Shown here piece by piece: positions 2,919 to 62,855 of a DNA stretch of 64,000 nucleotides (position 1 is its first letter; every line of letters starts with the position of its first letter). Source of the DNA: Escherichia coli (lineage in GTDB: Bacteria; Pseudomonadota; Gammaproteobacteria; Enterobacterales; Enterobacteriaceae); the NCBI RefSeq assembly GCF_001677475.2, contig NZ_CP015229.1; one strand, given 5' to 3'. The notes beneath the pieces were generated by a model. The model was not told where the DNA came from. It saw only the letters and a list, made by a program, of their open reading frames with translations, and did no database searches. A program made the position numbers and the translations under genes.

Positions 2919-4826
2919 ATGTCATTAATCAGTATGCATGGCGCATGGCTGTCGTTCAGCGACGCGCCGCTTCTCGATAACGCAGAACTGCATATCGAAG
3001 ATAACGAACGTGTTTGTCTGGTGGGCCGCAACGGCGCAGGCAAATCGACGTTAATGAAAATCCTCAACCGTGAACAAGGGCTGGATGACGGTCGCATTAT
3101 TTACGAGCAAGATTTGATTGTAGCTCGTCTGCAACAGGATCCGCCGCGTAACGTTGAGGGGAGTGTTTATGATTTCGTTGCCGAAGGCATTGAAGAACAA
3201 GCGGAATACCTGAAACGCTATCACGATATTTCGCGCCTGGTGATGAACGACCCGAGCGAGAAAAATCTCAACGAACTGGCGAAGGTTCAGGAACAGCTGG
3301 ATCACCACAACCTGTGGCAGCTGGAAAACCGCATCAACGAAGTGCTGGCGCAACTGGGGTTAGATCCTAACGTTGCGCTGTCGTCGCTTTCCGGCGGCTG
3401 GTTGCGTAAAGCGGCATTAGGACGCGCGCTGGTGAGCAATCCGCGCGTATTGCTGCTCGACGAACCGACTAACCACCTGGATATCGAAACCATCGACTGG
3501 CTGGAAGGATTCCTTAAAACCTTCAATGGGACGATAATTTTCATCTCCCACGACCGTTCGTTTATCCGCAATATGGCGACGCGCATTGTTGATCTCGATC
3601 GCGGCAAGCTTGTGACCTATCCTGGGAATTACGACCAGTACCTGCTGGAAAAAGAAGAAGCCCTGCGCGTGGAAGAACTACAAAATGCCGAGTTCGATCG
3701 CAAACTGGCGCAGGAAGAGGTGTGGATCCGCCAGGGGATCAAAGCACGCCGTACCCGTAATGAAGGCCGCGTACGCGCCCTGAAAGCAATGCGTCGCGAG
3801 CGTGGCGAACGTCGCGAAGTGATGGGTACCGCAAAGATGCAGGTGGAAGAGGCCAGCCGTTCCGGTAAGATCGTTTTCGAAATGGAAGACGTTTGCTACC
3901 AGGTCGACGGTAAGCAACTGGTGAAAGATTTTTCGGCCCAGGTTCTACGTGGCGACAAAATTGCCCTGATTGGTCCGAATGGATGCGGCAAAACCACGCT
4001 GCTGAAACTGATGCTCGGTCAGCTTCAGGCGGACAGCGGGCGTATTCACGTTGGCACCAAACTGGAAGTGGCTTATTTCGATCAGCACCGTGCGGAACTG
4101 GATCCCGATAAAACGGTGATGGATAACCTTGCTGAAGGTAAGCAAGAGGTGATGGTTAACGGCAAGCCACGCCATGTTTTGGGCTATTTGCAGGACTTCC
4201 TGTTCCATCCGAAACGGGCGATGACGCCGGTACGTGCGCTTTCTGGCGGTGAGCGTAACCGCTTGTTGTTGGCGCGTTTGTTCCTCAAACCAAGCAACTT
4301 ATTGATTCTTGACGAACCGACCAACGATCTTGATGTTGAAACGCTGGAACTGCTGGAAGAACTGATCGACAGCTACCAGGGCACGGTATTGCTGGTGAGC
4401 CACGATCGTCAGTTTGTCGATAACACCGTTACAGAATGCTGGATCTTCGAAGGCGGCGGTAAAATTGGTCGTTATGTCGGCGGTTATCATGATGCCCGTG
4501 GTCAGCAAGAACAGTATGTGGCGCTCAAACAGCCTGCGGTGAAAAAAATCGAAGAAGCCGCCGCGCCAAAAGCAGAAACTGTAAAACGCAGCAGTAGCAA
4601 ACTAAGCTATAAATTGCAGCGCGAACTGGAGCAGCTACCGCAATTGCTCGAAGATCTGGAGGCGAAGCTGGAAGCCCTACAGACGCAGGTGGCGGATGCT
4701 TCCTTCTTCAGTCAGCCGCATGAGCAGACACAAAAAGTGCTCGCTGATATGGCTGCTGCAGAGCAGGAGCTGGAGCAAGCCTTTGAACGCTGGGAGTATC
4801 TTGAAGCGTTAAAAAATGGTGGCTGA
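2919..4826 (+). CDS. uup: ABC-F family ATPase Uup
   Basis: 635 aa, two ABC cassettes (GRNGAGKST / GPNGCGKTT, LSGGE signatures), C-terminal coiled coil. Confidence 0.93.
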   Translation: MSLISMHGAWLSFSDAPLLDNAELHIEDNERVCLVGRNGAGKSTLMKILNREQGLDDGRIIYEQDLIVARLQQDPPRNVEGSVYDFVAEGIEEQAEYLKRYHDISRLVMNDPSEKNLNELAKVQEQLDHHNLWQLENRINEVLAQLGLDPNVALSSLSGGWLRKAALGRALVSNPRVLLLDEPTNHLDIETIDWLEGFLKTFNGTIIFISHDRSFIRNMATRIVDLDRGKLVTYPGNYDQYLLEKEEALRVEELQNAEFDRKLAQEEVWIRQGIKARRTRNEGRVRALKAMRRERGERREVMGTAKMQVEEASRSGKIVFEMEDVCYQVDGKQLVKDFSAQVLRGDKIALIGPNGCGKTTLLKLMLGQLQADSGRIHVGTKLEVAYFDQHRAELDPDKTVMDNLAEGKQEVMVNGKPRHVLGYLQDFLFHPKRAMTPVRALSGGERNRLLLARLFLKPSNLLILDEPTNDLDVETLELLEELIDSYQGTVLLVSHDRQFVDNTVTECWIFEGGGKIGRYVGGYHDARGQQEQYVALKQPAVKKIEEAAAPKAETVKRSSSKLSYKLQRELEQLPQLLEDLEAKLEALQTQVADASFFSQPHEQTQKVLADMAAAEQELEQAFERWEYLEALKNGG

Positions 4827-8906: not shown

Positions 8907-9425
8907 TCAGAAGGCAGACGTATCCTGGAACAGACCGACTTTCAGGTCGCTGGCGGTATAGATCAGACGACCATCAACCAACACTTCGCCATCTGCCAGA
9001 CCCATAATCAGACGACGATTAACAATGCGTTTAAAGTGAATACGGTAGGTCACTTTTTTCGCTGTCGGCAGTACCTGACCAGTGAATTTCACTTCGCCAA
9101 CGCCCAGCGCGCGGCCTTTACCTTCGCCGCCCAGCCAGCCGAGGTAGAACCCTACCAGCTGCCACATTGCATCCAGGCCCAGGCATCCCGGCATAACCGG
9201 ATCGCCAATGAAGTGGCATCCGAAGAACCACAGATCCGGATTGATATCCAGTTCTGCTTCAACATACCCTTTGTCGAAGTTACCACCCGTTTCGGTCATT
9301 TTGACCACACGGTCCATCATCAGCATGTTCGGTGCTGGCAATTGCGGGCCTTTAGCGCCAAACAGTTCACCGCGACCAGAGGCAAGAAGGTCTTCTTTTG
9401 TATAGGATTCGCGTTTATCTACCAT
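8907..9425 (-). CDS. fabA: 3-hydroxydecanoyl-ACP dehydratase/isomerase FabA
   Basis: ORF 8907-9623; real start at [14 protein letters not shown] (172 aa). Confidence 0.93.
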
Positions 9426-16868: not shown

Positions 16869-17315
16869 TTATTGGAAACGACGACGTGCATTGGCTTCAC
16901 GCGCAGCTTGCGCTGTTTCTACCGATACCACGCGACGACCAACCGGCCATAGTGCAATAGCGGCAATTTTAAAGTTCGCAATGCCGACAGGAATGCCAAT
17001 GATTGAAATACATTGTGCGATGCCCGTTGCAATGTGCATCAGGCATAACCACCAGCCAAAGAAAATCAGCCAGAAAATATTCAATACCGTACCGCCAGTA
17101 TTTAGCAGCACATTTTTGCCAGCCGGGTTCAGTTCATCGACATGAATAGCTTCATTGCCATAAGGCACCAGAGACAGTTTAGTGATCTCCCAGCAGGATC
17201 GTGTCAGCGGTAAGGTAAAAATCAGCACAATACTGACCAGAGTCGCCAACAGCCAGCCCAGAGTGGTGGCAAATCCGCCAAGCACAAAGTTCAGAATGTT
17301 CAAAACGGTACGCAT
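16869..17315 (-). CDS. yccF: Inner membrane protein YccF
   Basis: 148 aa hydrophobic, K-12 synteny. Confidence 0.85.
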   Translation of the reverse strand: MRTVLNILNFVLGGFATTLGWLLATLVSIVLIFTLPLTRSCWEITKLSLVPYGNEAIHVDELNPAGKNVLLNTGGTVLNIFWLIFFGWWLCLMHIATGIAQCISIIGIPVGIANFKIAAIALWPVGRRVVSVETAQAAREANARRRFQ

Positions 17316-45206: not shown

Positions 45207-45689
45207 ATGTCAGGACCTCCGAAAACCCCGCCACGCCTGCATTTGATACGAGGCAACCCCTCAAAGCGCCCCGTTAAAGACCACAAAAAAACCGCTAAAA
45301 AGGATGAAAAAGGTCTTCCTAAAATTCCGCAGCATTTAGGGGCTCAGGGGAAGTACTGGTTCAGGCGAATGGCGGAAGAGCTGAATGCGGAAGGGATCAT
45401 TTCTCAGCTTGATGCGCGTGCACTCGAGTTGCTGGTGGAAGCCTACACCGAATATCGGCATCACTGCGAAACACTCGATGTTGAGGGGTATACCTACCGC
45501 ACGGAAACGCAGAGCGGTGATGTACTGATTAAGGCGCACCCCGCGGCGGCAATGAAAGCGGATGCCTGGAAGCGGATCCGGGCAATGCTTGCAGAGTTTG
45601 GTATGTCACCGGCAAGCCGGGCTAAAGTAAATATCGCCGGACCGGATGATGTTGATCCGCTGGCGGAGCTTTTAAAAGCGAGAGACTGA
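45207..45689 (+). CDS. Terminase small subunit (P27-family-like)
   Basis: 160 aa; homologous to the satellite TerS at 59601. Confidence 0.7.
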   Translation: MSGPPKTPPRLHLIRGNPSKRPVKDHKKTAKKDEKGLPKIPQHLGAQGKYWFRRMAEELNAEGIISQLDARALELLVEAYTEYRHHCETLDVEGYTYRTETQSGDVLIKAHPAAAMKADAWKRIRAMLAEFGMSPASRAKVNIAGPDDVDPLAELLKARD

Positions 45690-46716
45690 TGGCAAAAGTG
45701 GCTGACGGGATCCGCTACGCCGAACGTGTTGTTGCAGGAGAAATTGTTGCTGGCGAATTTGTCCGCCTGGCCTGCCAGCGTTTTCTTGATGATCTGAAGT
45801 ACGGCGAAGAGCGGGGGATTTATTTCAGTGAACCCCGTGCGCAGCACATCCTGAATTTCTACAAATTTGTGCCTCATGTAAAAGGGGCGCTGGCAGGCCA
45901 GCCCATTGAGTTGATGGACTGGCATGTATTTATTCTCATTAATATTTTTGGTTTTGTCATTCCGCTGGTCAATGAAGAGACCGGGGAAGTTGTCATGCGC
46001 AGCGATGGCAGTGGACGTCCGGTGATGGTGCGCCGGTTCCGGACGGCGTACAACGAAGTCGCTCGTAAAAACGCAAAATCAACTCTGTCATCGGGTATCG
46101 GCCTGTATATGACGGGGGCAGATGGTGAAGGCGGAGCTGAGGTGTATTCAGCCGCAACCACGCGTGACCAGGCCAGAATCGTGTTTGAAGACGCCAAAAA
46201 TATGGTCAGAAAAGCCCGGTCGACACTCGGGCGGTTGTTTGATTTCAACAAGCTGGCGATTTACCAGGAGCAGAGCGCATCAAAATTTGAACCGCTTTCT
46301 TCGGATGCAAACAACCTAGACGGTCTGAACATCCACTGCGCCATTATTGATGAGCTGCATGCACATAAAACCCGCGACGTGTGGGACGTTCTGGAAACGG
46401 CAACCGGTGCCCGTCTGCAGTCCCTGTTATTTGGTATCACCACGGCGGGCTTTAACAAGGAAGGGATTTGTTACGAGCAACGCGATTACGCCATCAAGGT
46501 ATTGCGAGGCTATAACAGCGACGTGGAGGGCGCGGTAAAAGACGACTCCTACTTTGCGATTATTTACACGCTCGATGAGGGAGATGATCCGTTTGATGAA
46601 ACGGTCTGGCAGAAAGCGAATCCGGGCCTGGGCATCTGTAAACGCTGGGATGATCTGCGTCGTCTGGCGAAAAAAGCGAAGGAGCAGGTCTCGGCGCGGG
46701 TGAATTTTTTCACGAA
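45689..46716 (+). pseudogene. Prophage terminase large subunit, N-terminal ~343 codons, interrupted by satellite insertion
   Basis: Aligns with satellite TerL N-terminus (PHVKGA..G.PIEL..W); frame runs into unrelated satellite DNA and stops at 46882. Confidence 0.8.
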
Positions 46717-46845
46717 GAAAGTAACATCACGCCGTAACAACAGTGCAGTCTGTCCTGATTTTTTTAGTAACCAAATGAAAGAAAAAGATTTTTTCTTGTT
46801 CGTCGTTTTTGTTTTTTCTGGATGGTTCTGGCTGTTTTCATCATT

Positions 46846-46867
46846 TGTGTATTGCACTGTGTATTGC
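46846..46867. repeat. Tandem GTGTATTGC repeats near satellite left end
   Basis: tgtgtattgcactgtgtattgc; near-identical copy at 62023-62043. Confidence 0.6.
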
Positions 46868-51391: not shown

Positions 51392-51625
51392 ATGCGTGAT
51401 ATTTACATTGAAACAATAGACCGCGTATTTCTTGCACTTTCTCACAGTGAAAACATGCTGGAAATATTACGCATATGGCTTGAAACGCTTGGAGATAATG
51501 AACGTGATAAACAGAAATCCAGAATTGCCACGGCATTAATAACGCTTCTTGAGCCTGTAATAAATGAGTTACAGGAAATAGAGACATTACACGACAGATA
51601 TAAAGAACAGCACACCGGAGAATAA
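51392..51625 (+). CDS. Hypothetical protein
   Basis: ORF 51380-51625, start at MRDIYIETID. Confidence 0.35.
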   Translation: MRDIYIETIDRVFLALSHSENMLEILRIWLETLGDNERDKQKSRIATALITLLEPVINELQEIETLHDRYKEQHTGE

Positions 51626-51630
51626 AAATA

Positions 51631-51930
51631 ATGAAACTTAAATATTCTGGCTTAACTGCCAGCGGCCCCGCTCGGCCTGAAATCCGTAACGGCGATATTT
51701 ACCGCGACCAGTACGGTGGCACGGTAATGATTAAGGGCGTGGCGGGACGGTGCGTTACCTACCGCCGTGAAGGTTACGAATATGACTGCGTGATGCCTGT
51801 TTATCAGTTCCGGCGTGATTTTTCTCTGGTACAGGCAGCGCAACGCGGTAAGCCCACCAGCAACGCCAGGGCACGTGCAAACATCCAGAAACTGAAAACC
51901 ATGATTAACGGATTCAGGGGTAAAAAATGA
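51631..51930 (+). CDS. Hypothetical protein
   Basis: 99-aa ORF upstream of the rep gene. Confidence 0.35.
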   Translation: MKLKYSGLTASGPARPEIRNGDIYRDQYGGTVMIKGVAGRCVTYRREGYEYDCVMPVYQFRRDFSLVQAAQRGKPTSNARARANIQKLKTMINGFRGKK

Positions 51931-53336
51931 AACTGGCACCGAACGTAAAACTATTACCGAAAGATAAGCACACAGAAGCGATTATTTTCGCGGGTGTTGA
52001 TGCTCACTCATTTGCAGAGCACTACATCATTGCACAGGCCAAAAAGGCGGGAGACCCGACGCCTCCCGTTTACCTGGGCCGTTATCAGTTAAGCGAACTG
52101 GATAACTTGCAGATTGTTGATGAGGGGCGGTACAGGGCGACAGTGATACGCGCCGGAAATATTGACGAAGCGCAGCTGCTAACCATCGCGACGAAACTGG
52201 CGATCGCCGGAGTCCAGGAAGCGCGGCTGCTTTCTGAAAATTTCGAATTGCTGGAGAAATGGACCGACCAGCTACCACGGTTGCGGGAGACATGGGAGAG
52301 AGGGGAAAGCCTGGTAATGGCAAAAAACCCCCAACGAAACACCACGCTACCGATGAGCGTTGGATCTGCCGGATACGACACGCAGCTGGATTACGTGGTT
52401 AAGGGCATTATTCCGGCGTCGTCGCTGTGCAGCATATACGGGGCGAGCGGTTCCTATAAATCATTCCTTGCGGGTTCGTGGGCGTGTCACGTTTCCACGG
52501 GCCGCCAGTGGGGAGGCCGCAGGGTTGCGCATGGTGCCGTTCTCTATGTGGTTGGTGAAGGCGGTATTGGTGTACCACGTCGTGTAAAAGCCTGGGAGGT
52601 TGTGCACGATGTACAGGTGAAAAATCTGTACCTGGTAAACCGCCCCGTCTTTCCGGCGGTCCCGCTTGATGTTGATGAAATGGTTATCGCTGCCCGTCAG
52701 GTGGAGCGGGAAACGGGTAAACCTGTACGCATGATTATTCTGGATACGCTGGCGCGTTGCTTTGGCGGCAATGATGAAAATGATTCCCGTGATATGGGGG
52801 CGTTTATCCGTGGGTGTGACGAACTGAAACGACGCACAGGGGCTACGGTGCTGGTGGTTCACCATTCCGGCAAGGATGAGACGAAAGGCGCGCGAGGTTC
52901 CAGTGCATTCCGTGCGTCACTGGATGCCGAATACCGGATACGCAGAGAGGACGCAGGAAGCGAGGCGCTGGTAATCTCATGTACCAAAATGAAGGACGCG
53001 GAGGAACTTAAAGAAGCCGCCTACGATTTGCGGGTGGTGGAGCTATTTACCGACGCTGACGGCGAATTAATTACGTCGCTGGTGGTGGTGGATAAGCCGC
53101 GTCCTCCCGTTGAACTGGAGCGCATCGAGGAGGCAGGCAACAAGACGGAAAACCATACCGCGTTATGGGGGTGCATCCGGTCGCGCACACAGAACGGTGA
53201 TAAGTGCACTATTGCGCTGTTACGTGACGATATGAAAAAGCTGGGGTATGAGATGAAGCACTTCAGCCGCTGGTTACGCAAGCTGGAAAAAGACGGGGTT
53301 ATTTATATCGACGGTGATGACGTAGGCACGCTGTAA
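51927..53336 (+). CDS. Replication protein: RepA-like RecA-fold helicase/ATPase with C-terminal DNA-binding region
   Basis: 469 aa; Walker A GASGSYKS, Walker B MIILD, HHSGKDETKGARGSSA; iterons immediately downstream. Confidence 0.7.
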   Translation: MKLAPNVKLLPKDKHTEAIIFAGVDAHSFAEHYIIAQAKKAGDPTPPVYLGRYQLSELDNLQIVDEGRYRATVIRAGNIDEAQLLTIATKLAIAGVQEARLLSENFELLEKWTDQLPRLRETWERGESLVMAKNPQRNTTLPMSVGSAGYDTQLDYVVKGIIPASSLCSIYGASGSYKSFLAGSWACHVSTGRQWGGRRVAHGAVLYVVGEGGIGVPRRVKAWEVVHDVQVKNLYLVNRPVFPAVPLDVDEMVIAARQVERETGKPVRMIILDTLARCFGGNDENDSRDMGAFIRGCDELKRRTGATVLVVHHSGKDETKGARGSSAFRASLDAEYRIRREDAGSEALVISCTKMKDAEELKEAAYDLRVVELFTDADGELITSLVVVDKPRPPVELERIEEAGNKTENHTALWGCIRSRTQNGDKCTIALLRDDMKKLGYEMKHFSRWLRKLEKDGVIYIDGDDVGTL

Positions 53337-53530
53337 AAAGTGGGGTGCAAAAGTGGGGAGAGTGAGCAAAACGCCCGAAAAACGCCATTATTCCCCACTT
53401 TTCAACGTATATATACCCAAAAAAGTGGGGAGTAAAAAAATCTTTATGAAACAGCACGATAAAAATCAAAAACTCCCCACCTGTAACGAGGTGGGGAAGT
53501 GTAAAAAGTGGGGCGCAAAAGTGGGGAGTG
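53336..53530. repeat. Iteron array, candidate satellite replication origin
   Basis: Eight or more copies of AAAGTGGGG / CCCCACTTT in both orientations within ~195 bp. Confidence 0.7.
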
Positions 53531-53786
53531 ATGGGGAAATGACCAGAATACGCAGAGACAGAACAGAGCCGAAATATAAAGCGTTAGACATGACAGAGCT
53601 TTCCTTAACGGTGGCAATCAAAGCGATAGACCGCCACACGCGGGAAGGATACGCGAAGGAACATCCCGAACTGATAAGCGCATTCATGGCCGCAGCGGCT
53701 GCAAACTTTGCCACGCTGACAGAACGGGAGACAGCCGAGGCAGAACAGGTAACAACCATCAACGTTAAAACCGGAGGGGTGGAATC

Positions 53787-54212
53787 ATGACGGCACAGAT
53801 AGCAGCTTACGGGCGGCTGGTGGAGGACCCGCAGGTAAAACAGACCAGCAAGGGAACACCCATGACGCTGGCGAGTATGGCGGTTCCCCTGCCATGCAGC
53901 CAGGCAGATGACGGAACGGCGACGATGTGGTTATCCGTCCTGGCGTTTGGCAGACAGGCCGACGCACTGGCAAAACACCGCAAAGGCGAACTGGTGAGCG
54001 TGGCGGGTAACATGCAGGTAAGCCAGTGGACAGGGCAGAACGGCGAAACGCGGCAGGGCTGGCAGGTTATTGCAGACAGCGTAATCAGTGCGCGAACGGC
54101 GCGACCGGGCGGCAAAAAAGGCCAACAGGGGCAGGCCACTGACGCACTGAACAGGGCAAAACAACAGACAGGCCAGCACGATGATCCGTACGGGGACGGG
54201 ATACCGTTTTAA
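53787..54212 (+). CDS. ssb: Single-stranded DNA-binding protein
   Basis: 141 aa; OB-fold-like N-terminus, Gly/Gln-rich linker, acidic tail ending DDPYGDGIPF. Confidence 0.7.
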   Translation: MTAQIAAYGRLVEDPQVKQTSKGTPMTLASMAVPLPCSQADDGTATMWLSVLAFGRQADALAKHRKGELVSVAGNMQVSQWTGQNGETRQGWQVIADSVISARTARPGGKKGQQGQATDALNRAKQQTGQHDDPYGDGIPF

Positions 54213-61681: not shown

Positions 61682-61837
61682 TTGCGGGTTATTTGAGGGG
61701 TGTTTGCGGGTTATTTTGAATGTCTTGCGGGTTACATTCTGGCTGATATTTAAATACGTTGTTTTTTTAACGTATTGATATTAAAGAGTAAAAGATAATT
61801 AGCACGCGAAGATAACCCGCTAACCCGCATAACCCGC
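61682..61837. repeat. Symmetric repeat array near satellite right end
   Basis: Three direct TTGCGGGTTA and three inverted TAACCCGC copies flanking an AT-rich palindrome (aatacgtt...aacgtatt). Confidence 0.6.
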
Positions 61838-62022
61838 ACTGTTTTGTATATATATACGAAAAATTGCATTCAGGGGGGATCGAAATTTCTACTGCCTCTT
61901 ATCTCTTTGAGTGCTCACCTCGTCAGATTGTTACACACAAGAAATAAAAAATGCTTCGCGATGGTAGGTCGAATCACTGTATCAAAAAACGGTGTGTATC
62001 AGCATTAAAACAATACAGATAC

Positions 62023-62043
62023 GTGTATTGCGCTGTGTATTGC
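62023..62043. repeat. Tandem GTGTATTGC repeats near satellite right end
   Basis: gtgtattgcgctgtgtattgc, matching 46846-46867. Confidence 0.6.
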
Positions 62044-62118: not shown

Positions 62119-62855
62119 TCACGAAACACATGAATGTGTGGGTCACTGCCGAATCGGCCTGGATGGACATGATTAAGTGGGAGAAGTGCGAATACATCGC
62201 TCCACAGCATGAGCTGAAAACGTATCCCATGTGGGTCGGCGTCGACCTTGCACATAAGATTGATATCTGTGCGGCGGCAAAACTCTGGCGAACGGATAAC
62301 GGGCATGTTCATGCCGATTTTAAATTCTGGCTTCCGGAAGGGCGACTGGAACGGTGTTCACGGCAGCAGGCAGAACTTTACCGGAAGTGGGCGGAGATGG
62401 ATAAGCTCATCCTGACGGATGGTGATGTTATCGATCATGCTCAGATAAAAAGTGACTTACTGGAATGGATTGGTGGTGAAAACCTCAGGGAACTGGGATT
62501 TGACCCGTGGAGCGCGATGCAGTTCAGCCTGGCACTGGCTGAAGAAGGGATACCGCTGGTGGAGGTTCCGCAGACGGTCCGCAATCTGTCAGAGGCCATG
62601 AAGGAAACGGAATCACTGGTCTATGCCGGACGTTTCCACCACAGCAATCACCCGGTCATGAACTGGATGATGTCTAACGTTACGGTGAAACCGGACAAAA
62701 ACGACAATATCTTCCCGAATAAATCCACGCCGGAAGCCAAAATCGACGGCCCTGTTGCGATGTTTACAGCAATGAGCCGGATGCTGGTCAATGGCGGTGA
62801 ACCGGAGCCGGATCTGTCTGAACACCTGATCAGTGTTGGTATCCGCTCGCTTTAA
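62119..62855 (+). pseudogene. Prophage terminase large subunit, C-terminal ~245 codons (resumes after satellite)
   Basis: LTKHMNVWVTAESAWM aligns with satellite TerL LTKRFNIWCQGATPWM. Confidence 0.8.

Follow-up and report, generated by a model that had tools for sequence, protein, structure and literature searches.

The closest described counterparts of the locus reported here, a repeat array lying directly behind the rep gene of a phage satellite in a 64,000-nt stretch of Escherichia coli DNA (the window; all coordinates are those of this whole stretch), are the replication origins of the Staphylococcus aureus pathogenicity islands (SaPIs) and of E. coli's phage-inducible chromosomal islands (PICIs). 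SaPI Rep is a self-loading helicase of the AAA+ class (superfamily SF3 or SF6). Shortly past the end of its gene lies an origin with an AT-rich centre, in which 6-12 iterons of five or six nucleotides are recognised by the C-terminal winged helix of Rep (Qiao et al. 2022, PMC9371898); for the origins of SaPI1, SaPIbov1 and SaPI5 that article cites Ubeda et al. (2007). In E. coli, the rep-ori segment of EcCICFT073 was reported to support plasmid maintenance, which was impaired by removal of either rep or ori (Fillol-Salom et al. 2018, PMC6092414). The supplements of the latter article list no iteron sequences, and neither origin nor iterons are described in the preprint defining the capsid-forming PICIs (cf-PICIs; bioRxiv 10.1101/2022.09.08.507074). 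Positions 53337-53537 of the window are very probably the Rep-dependent vegetative replication origin of such a cf-PICI, with the repeats serving as iterons for the adjacent Rep.

The window array shares with SaPI origins its position directly downstream of rep, its short iterons (core of 5-6 nt), their arrangement in two groups around an AT-rich centre and their occurrence in both orientations, while Rep shares with SaPI Rep the union of initiator and helicase in one protein and a (here predicted) C-terminal winged helix, the primase being separate or fused. The two proteins differ in the helicase core, which belongs to the SF3/SF6 AAA+ type in SaPIs and is a RecA-fold AAA_25 domain, like that of RSF1010 RepA, T7 gp4 and DnaB, in the window; further differences are the lack of sequence similarity, the Gram-negative host of the window satellite and its GTGGGG iteron. 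By analogy, the window Rep appears to work like SaPI Rep without being its homologue. EcCICFT073 also carries PerC and AlpA-type genes around its rep-ori, but has a pri-rep gene where the window satellite has a helicase-only Rep. The same element type and gene order (integrase, regulators, DUF4222, rep, ori, the 83-aa gene, and single-stranded DNA-binding protein (SSB) through to the large terminase, TerL) were found in Sp7/EcCIEDL933, Sp7 being a prophage-like element of E. coli Sakai, and in a satellite of E. coli 042, which share the N-terminal domain of Rep and differ from the window in having a ~710-aa Rep of the DUF927/primase type and the iteron TGCGGGTTA.

The alpha protein of satellite P4 combines a helicase with winged-helix origin binding at short repeated sites, in which it resembles the window Rep; it also has a primase domain, and needs crr, a second cognate site several kb away. 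A replicon of this alpha/ori/crr type was rejected for the window, as Rep gave no primase match, AAAGTGGGG (the window repeat) occurred at one place only, and a second array at 61.7 kb differs in sequence. Plasmid iterons (pPS10, R6K, F, RK2) are 17-22 bp long and phased at about 22 bp, usually accompanied by DnaA boxes and served by an initiator lacking a helicase; they have in common with the window repeated initiator sites beside an AT-rich unwinding element. A classical iteron plasmid origin was likewise rejected on account of the length (9-10 bp) and 13-bp spacing of the window sites, the lack of DnaA box, integration host factor (IHF) site and GATC, and the presence of the helicase within the initiator. 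The IncQ plasmid RSF1010 divides these tasks between two proteins, RepC binding the iterons and RepA acting as the helicase, whereas the window Rep appears to hold both functions.

The repeats are almost certainly sites bound by Rep to initiate replication of the satellite. As a SaPI/PICI-type origin, the feature is of a kind already known, and the current picture of PICI biology is left unchanged. New here are a proposed one-residue/one-base recognition rule, a SaPI-style origin paired with a RecA-fold helicase, the boundaries of an exchanged rep segment and a gene start at 53539. A RecA-fold helicase would here be combined with a winged helix and iterons in the way that SaPIs combine them with AAA+ helicases, and the origin would mark where and how the satellite amplifies after helper phage induction.

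Repeats and layout of the array

The exact 9-mer AAAGTGGGG was found six times within 190 bp (53337-53526), five times on the + strand (from 53337, 53350, 53422, 53505 and 53518) and once on the - strand (53393-53401), and nowhere else in the 64-kb window. Dinucleotide-preserving shuffles of the window (n = 100) gave a mean of 0.57 copies, and none of the 100 reached six; with one mismatch allowed, only background levels were seen across the rest of the window. The core GTGGGG occurred eight times within 53337-53527 and at no other place in the 64 kb, the two cores additional to the 9-mers being located at 53475-53480 (- strand) and 53491-53496 (+ strand), in the 10-mers CAGGTGGGGA and GAGGTGGGGA. 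Including two degenerate copies, AGAGTGAGCA and GTGATGGGGA, the array comprises ten sites (Table 1), and both degenerate positions (53359 and 53528) hold perfect copies in relatives. An earlier note on this DNA had reported at least eight repeats in both orientations, which is correct for the GTGGGG core and too high for the exact 9-mer. Its limits of 53336-53530 were accurate. The array starts one base past the rep stop codon (TAA, 53334-53336), and the ATG at 53539 lies one base beyond its end. The placing of the array directly after a satellite RepA-like helicase gene agrees with the AAA_25 domain and with the PICI satellite gene context, and what the note had called the classic position for a PICI origin, directly 3' of rep, was found in relatives as well.

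From left to right, the array consists of two to three direct repeats, an inverted pair around the palindrome GTATATATAC (53407-53416), an AT-rich stretch of ~40 bp, another inverted pair, and again two to three direct repeats. The inverted pairs are formed by the sites at 53392 (-) and 53422 (+), which flank the palindrome, and by those at 53474 (-) and 53488 (+). The left and right clusters represent a near-perfect 27-nt duplication (TGTAAAAAGTGGGGyGCAAAAGTGGGGAG) 168 bp apart, and the sites at 53337, 53422 and 53505 are spaced by 85 and 83 bp. GC content fell to 0.25-0.33 over about 53400-53479, compared with 0.5-0.65 in the flanks, so that a left set (53337-53431) and a right set (53474-53537) are separated by low-GC DNA, which is the two-set organisation of a PICI/SaPI-type origin. 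Both orientations are present on each side (left, + + (+) - +; right, - + + + (+); degenerate sites in brackets). No DnaA box (one mismatch allowed), IHF consensus, GATC or oriC-type 13-mer was present in 53300-53560. Two - strand 'terminators' called in a promoter/terminator scan were discarded, as they correspond to the inverted iteron pair 6/7 followed by an A-run.

Table 1. Features of the proposed origin and of associated loci in the window
Feature	Position	Strand	Basis or remark
rep, 469-aa putative initiator-helicase	51927..53336	+	Pfam AAA_25; PHROG 2850
Predicted C-terminal winged-helix coding region of rep	53139..53333	+	AF2; recognition helix predicted at residues 446-455
Iteron 1 (AAAGTGGGGT)	53337..53346	+	starts one base past rep stop
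Iteron 2 (AAAGTGGGGA)	53350..53359	+	13 bp past iteron 1
Degenerate iteron 3 (AGAGTGAGCA)	53359..53368	+	perfect at same position in relative L081 and other relatives
Iteron 4 (TCCCCACTTT on + strand)	53392..53401	-	left arm of inverted pair at central palindrome
GTATATATAC palindrome between inverted iterons	53407..53416		(G/C)TATA(T/C)A core in nearly all relatives, with any iteron sequence
Iteron 5 (AAAGTGGGGA)	53422..53431	+	right arm of central inverted pair
AT-rich spacer, proposed unwinding region	53432..53473		GC profile
Iteron 6 (variant CAGGTGGGGA)	53474..53483	-	pairs with iteron 7
Iteron 7 (variant GAGGTGGGGA)	53488..53497	+	9-bp perfect inverted pair with iteron 6
Iteron 8 (AAAGTGGGGC)	53505..53514	+	exact 9-mer
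Iteron 9 (AAAGTGGGGA)	53518..53527	+	13 bp past iteron 8
Degenerate iteron 10 (GTGATGGGGA)	53528..53537	+	perfect at same position in relatives L081 and L084
True downstream gene, 83 aa, PHROG 1231, function unassigned	53539..53790	+	profile, RefSeq, relatives
Satellite-encoded SSB	53787..54212	+	PHROG 44; RefSeq annotation of homologues
Putative orphan half-origin of other specificity	61682..61863		after satellite terL; context, not part of the working origin

Rep, its relatives and covariation with the repeats

The product of rep matched Pfam AAA_25 (E = 4.8e-43, residues 150-318) and, over its full length, PHROG 2850; its E. coli homologues are named 'helicase RepA family protein' in RefSeq. 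Residues ~150-390 make up the AAA_25 RecA-fold helicase core, and residues ~405-469 a predicted winged helix. The AlphaFold2 (AF2) model of the whole protein had a mean pLDDT (predicted local distance difference test) of 80.9, and its Foldseek neighbours (T7 gp4, Twinkle, DnaB, RAD51, KaiC) were generic RecA-fold ATPases and helicases of superfamily SF4, with no initiator-specific match among them. A sequence search against the Protein Data Bank (PDB) gave a single match, RSF1010 RepA (1G8Y, E = 0.0075). No primase or Toprim domain was matched in Rep by Pfam or PHROG profiles, and NCBIfam gave no family for Rep, the DUF4222 protein or the 83-aa protein. Among 50,697 phage records there was no full-length relative of Rep, matches being confined to the helicase core (at most 53% identity), and the best-matching 'phage' record was a Salmonella contig; these records gave no evidence for use of this replicon by true phages.

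For the C-terminal domain, AF2 placed helices at residues 408-422, 429-438 and 446-455 (pLDDT about 84-94) and a beta-hairpin at 459-468 (strands 459-462 and 465-468), alike in the model of the whole protein and in that of the last 85 residues. The structural neighbours listed by Foldseek were overwhelmingly winged-helix proteins (probabilities up to 0.96, best E = 0.04), including ArsR/SmtB, the MarR-type proteins MepR and SarZ, LexA, Fur, DtxR/IdeR, the DnaD N-terminal domain and a chain of the origin recognition complex (ORC); no match was significant, and no particular winged-helix family could be named. In the third helix, R448, W449 and K452 were invariant, while the residues directly ahead of them varied; K444-H445-F446, at the N-terminal end of this predicted recognition helix, is proposed as the specificity determinant.

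A scan of one genome per species yielded 73 loci with Rep relatives (32-74% identity), of which 70 were analysed, from Xenorhabdus, Hafnia, Kosakonia, Serratia, Pectobacterium, Erwinia, Morganella, a metagenome-assembled genome (MAG) of the Oceanospirillaceae and others; repeats were located by a k-mer method allowing one mismatch. In 41 of these, no 300-bp window of the locus was richer in 8-mer repeats than the one directly after rep. The layout was retained by most of the loci, at near-constant distances from the rep stop. Direct copies were located at about +2 to +6 and +12 to +18, and in some loci at +23 to +28; the (G/C)TATA(T/C)A core was flanked by an inverted copy (about +55 to +60) and a direct copy (+84 to +90); and, past an AT-rich gap, further copies followed at about +143 to +160, +170 to +176 and +181 to +195. 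Absence of the repeats from related elements had been named in advance as a finding that would undo the proposal; most loci with Rep relatives carried repeats at the same place, and the layout provides a signature by which the origins of hundreds of satellites in enterobacteria could be annotated. The helicase and C-terminal domains were constant among the relatives and the N-terminus variable, giving proteins of ~350, 455 or 700 aa, the ~700-aa forms being presumably primase fusions, in line with the rule that 'pri and rep' are 'sometimes fused' in PICIs (PMC6092414). As a separate observation, one rep in Xenorhabdus beddingii (locus L002, about 4026-4330) was followed by two origin-like modules, the first a complete GTGAGG array and the second beginning with GTGGGG-type copies (AAAAGTGGGGAG, AAAAATGGGGAA, GGTGGGGAAG ... 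CCCCACTTTTTCTGTATAT).

The repeat sequence varied by clade: GTGGGGA in the window, Kluyvera, Superficieibacter and Trabulsiella; GTGGGGGA in Serratia, Pectobacterium, Erwinia and Morganella; GTGAGGA in Xenorhabdus; GTGAGGC in the Oceanospirillaceae MAG; GTGCGC in Hafnia; and GTGCGGC in Kosakonia, Enterobacter soli, Phytobacter and Rosenbergiella. This variation followed the start of the predicted Rep recognition helix. Reps with K-H-(F/L)-x-R-W were accompanied by GTGGGG or GTGGGn iterons (8/8 loci), and those with K-N-(F/L/M)-x-R-W by GTGAGG iterons (24/24 loci, a few of them degenerate as ATGAGG or GTGAGT), while S/N/D/E-K-K-F went with TGGGGGA and V-R-K-S-F with GTGCGGC (several genera each), and G-R-R-G-F with GTGCGC (Hafnia). 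The His/Asn switch was found in at least three backgrounds, namely GYEMK[H/N]F and GYD[T/V]K[H/N] in E. coli, and GID-T-K[H/N], in which Kluyvera and Superficieibacter stood against the Oceanospirillaceae MAG; a near-identical pair of domains is provided by the window Rep (LGYEMKHFSRWLRKLEKDGVIYIDGDDVGTL) and a Salmonella Rep (LGYEMKNFRRWLGKLEKDGVIYIDGDDVGPL, locus L084). In an alignment of eight E. coli/Salmonella origins, AAAAGTG.G of the clear iterons and the central palindrome were invariant, while the fourth core base was G at every clear iteron with His-type Reps and A at every one with Asn-type Reps; the five iteron positions invariant across the compared relatives are all perfect in the window array. 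Rep residue 445, at the N-terminal end of the predicted helix 446-455, covaries with iteron base 4. The pairing of His with guanine and of Asn with adenine agrees with contacts commonly preferred between proteins and DNA. A concerted change at all sites, matched to a residue at the start of the recognition helix, is what would be expected if the initiator reads its iterons, and suggests a simple rule, His445 with GTGGGG and Asn445 with GTGAGG. Such specificity would decide which satellites can coexist or cross-replicate.

Comparison with the otherwise homologous satellites located the exchange of rep. Against Sp7, homology extended over 51616-52003 (DUF4222 and the first 77 nt of rep), broke off, and resumed at 53534, which coincides with the right edge of the array. 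The Sp7 replacement encodes an unrelated 710-aa Rep of the primase type (DUF927) with a weak match to the SCCmec (staphylococcal cassette chromosome mec) Cch1 helicase, only its N-terminal ~125 residues being shared, and is followed by 11 copies of TGCGGGTTA and none of AAAGTGGGG. Against the E. coli 042 satellite, only 52160-53753, the rep segment, was replaced. In three further loci, other genes (ProQ-like and others) were located downstream of rep, and the array was still found behind it; the repeats hence belong to rep and not to the downstream or packaging genes. These alignments show that rep and array are exchanged as a unit between otherwise near-identical cf-PICIs, and they define the exact boundaries of the exchanged segment. 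Rep residues 1-122 are 46% identical to residues 1-127 of ECs_1582, the otherwise unrelated primase-type Rep of Sp7, and the DUF4222 gene directly upstream of rep (51631-51930) is retained with both Rep types; the Rep N-terminus (51927-52300, residues 1-127) and the DUF4222 protein may form a shared adaptor module, to which no function is assigned.

Proposed origin function and competing explanations

Rep binding, melting, helicase loading and origin activity are inferred by analogy with the SaPI and E. coli PICI replicons. After induction, Rep would bind each GTGGGG through its C-terminal winged helix, with His445 reading the fourth base. The sites at 53337, 53422 and 53505 are about eight helical turns apart and so would face the same side of the DNA, and the inverted pairs, which bracket GTATATATAC and the AT-rich DNA, would position Rep oligomers, probably hexamers, on both sides. 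The AT-rich DNA at about 53402-53473 would then melt, and the RecA-fold core of Rep would load itself onto the single strands. The satellite SSB probably coats the strands unwound by Rep, and host enzymes are presumed to prime and elongate, since Rep is without a primase domain. An initiator with a C-terminal winged helix specific for the iterons is indicated computationally by the AF2 fold together with the covariation.

Several points weigh against this interpretation. The outer tandem clusters share one direction instead of mirroring each other, which departs from the SaPI origin in its simplest picture. The priming step is unexplained, as Rep lacks a primase domain while many of its relatives are ~700-aa proteins with a presumed primase fusion. 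Structural support for the winged helix consists of the AF2 model and Foldseek E-values above 0.01, and about a quarter of the more distant loci had no clear repeats by the k-mer method. Finally, the covariation speaks for recognition of the repeats by Rep and not for initiation, and autoregulation or copy control could be served instead.

The last point underlies the view that the Rep sites are mainly regulatory, acting in copy control through throttled read-through transcription or the pairing of copies ('handcuffing'), with the true initiation site elsewhere. The array is located inside a co-directional string of rep, the 83-aa gene, SSB and PerC, its last iteron, a degenerate one, directly adjoins the ribosome-binding region and start codon of the gene that follows, and iterons of plasmid replicons commonly serve both initiation and control. 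However, a simple operator would need neither the AT-rich centre nor the TATA palindrome with inverted sites, both of which are kept across clades, no other cognate repeat cluster was present in the element, and the promoter/terminator scan found no sigma-70-like promoter in the array. The equivalent region is the functional origin in EcCICFT073 (PMC6092414) and in SaPIs (PMC9371898). A mainly regulatory array is considered improbable; regulation as a second role of a real origin is possible, and does not conflict with the origin interpretation. Less probable still is a relic, an origin that has decayed and lost its function. Of the ten positions, two are degenerate in the window and perfect in relatives, and the half-origin of another type at 61.7 kb indicates that origin remnants persist in the element, but Rep is an intact protein with 97% identity to proteins widespread in E. 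coli, eight sites have the full GTGGGG core, and the five invariant iteron positions are all perfect. Very little probability, in turn, is given to a packaging signal (small-terminase or cos-adjacent), or to operators of another satellite regulator such as PerC, AlpA or the Bro-like protein, in place of Rep sites. Recognition sites of small terminases and regulators are often short repeats, and the satellite encodes its own small terminase (TerS) and TerL along with several regulators; yet, residue by residue, the repeat sequence goes with that of the Rep winged helix, the array was swapped with rep while the packaging genes stayed 87-93% identical, near-identical PerC, SSB and packaging modules occur elsewhere with a wholly different repeat beside a different Rep, and terS is about 6 kb from the array.

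The remaining alternative, that the region encodes the N-terminal 62 residues of a 145-aa protein and that the repeats are a by-product of repeated peptide motifs, has next to no probability. It derives from an uninterrupted open reading frame (ORF) in the window, 53353-53790, which has a GTG start and in which the translated repeat yields KKWGAKVG twice. This GTG, however, is that of iteron 2, the repeats occur on both strands, and the PHROG 1231 profile (83 positions) aligned to residues 63-145 only of the long ORF and to the whole product of 53539-53787. RefSeq annotates only the 252-bp gene in E. coli SCU-171 and Sakai, and both RefSeq and three other gene-call sources place the start of the homologue at the ATG; a ~200-bp gap after rep was likewise left by independent gene calls in six more contigs of E. 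coli or Salmonella. In seven relatives, the upstream frame was closed 1-25 codons before the ATG, and the lengths of the gap from rep to ATG (199, 201, 202, 203 and 207) differ by numbers that are not multiples of 3. The profile extent, the RefSeq start, the other gene calls and the closed frames show that the region is non-coding and that the first 62 codons of the long ORF are a chance 5' extension, with the real start at 53539. The suspicion in the earlier note that this ORF was over-extended is thereby borne out, and the protein-coding region that the note had named as a possible refutation was not what the evidence indicated. In one E. coli relative (locus L078, about 3102), the start of the 83-aa gene is ATA instead of ATG, with an ATG three codons downstream, and the gene call may be misplaced or the gene impaired.

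The satellite, its second array and its insertion site

The satellite is ~15 kb long (about 46.7-62.1 kb). It encodes a tyrosine integrase, two AlpA-like proteins, a Bro-N protein, DUF4222, Rep, the 83-aa PHROG 1231 protein, SSB and PerC, together with an HK97-type capsid protein, protease, portal, connector, HNH protein, TerS and TerL. It is collinear with Sp7, which a supplement of the PICI article lists as 'Same as' the EDL933 entry (PMC6092414). Outside the rep segment, it shares 72-87% identity with Sp7; with the E. coli 042 element, identity reached 93-96% across most of the alignment. With ORFs spanning 46.9-61.6 kb, packaging genes of its own, no tail genes and a size of about 15 kb, it has the features of a cf-PICI of the EcCIEDL933 type, and its collinearity with Sp7 and its identity to the E. 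coli 042 element make it a capsid-forming PICI as defined in the preprint (bioRxiv 10.1101/2022.09.08.507074).

More unusual than the origin itself are the half-origin behind the satellite terL and the site of insertion. Positions 61682-61863 contained three copies of TTGCGGGTTA (21-22 bp apart), an AT-rich stretch and, on the opposite strand, three copies of (A/C)TAACCCGC (two of them exact); these are followed by TGTTTTGTATATATATACGAAAAA, and the segment includes the palindrome GTATATATATAC. Its identity was 79% with the Sp7 origin's right half and 98% with the distal array of the E. coli 042 satellite. As the TGCGGGTTA-type iteron goes with the DUF927/primase-type Rep, which is absent from the window satellite, the segment is regarded as an orphan. 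In Sp7, both halves of the TGCGGGTTA origin are contiguous, while in E. coli 042 (locus L085) this origin is split (8943-9067 and 17081-17235), the left half, with two direct and four inverted copies, adjoining the primase-type rep and the right half being located ~8 kb away, after terL. The split could represent a two-part origin like P4 ori/crr, or a rearrangement. A functional distal half would mean a two-part origin in cf-PICIs of the E. coli 042 lineage. The window satellite, carrying two origin modules of different specificity (the cognate GTGGGG origin and a retained TGCGGGTTA-type half-origin), could in that case be replicated by a Rep supplied in trans from a co-resident EcCIEDL933-type element, or could titrate that Rep, providing a route by which satellites parasitise or compete with each other. 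This reading is considered rather unlikely.

The satellite interrupts a resident prophage's large-terminase gene (45689-46800 and 62130-62855, with junctions near 46722 and 62125). This terL extends with its N-terminal part to the integrase end of the satellite, and its C-terminal part resumes past the right end. In the RefSeq annotation of E. coli 042, terL is split likewise, with phage portal, capsid and tail genes behind it, and the same right junction was found in at least 33 E. coli genomes. Titles and abstracts retrieved in a literature search on cf-PICIs did not mention insertion in a prophage terL. The repeat GTGTATTGC(n3)GTGTATTGC was present near both ends of the satellite (46846-46867 and 62023-62043), and its copies may be arm sites of the integrase.

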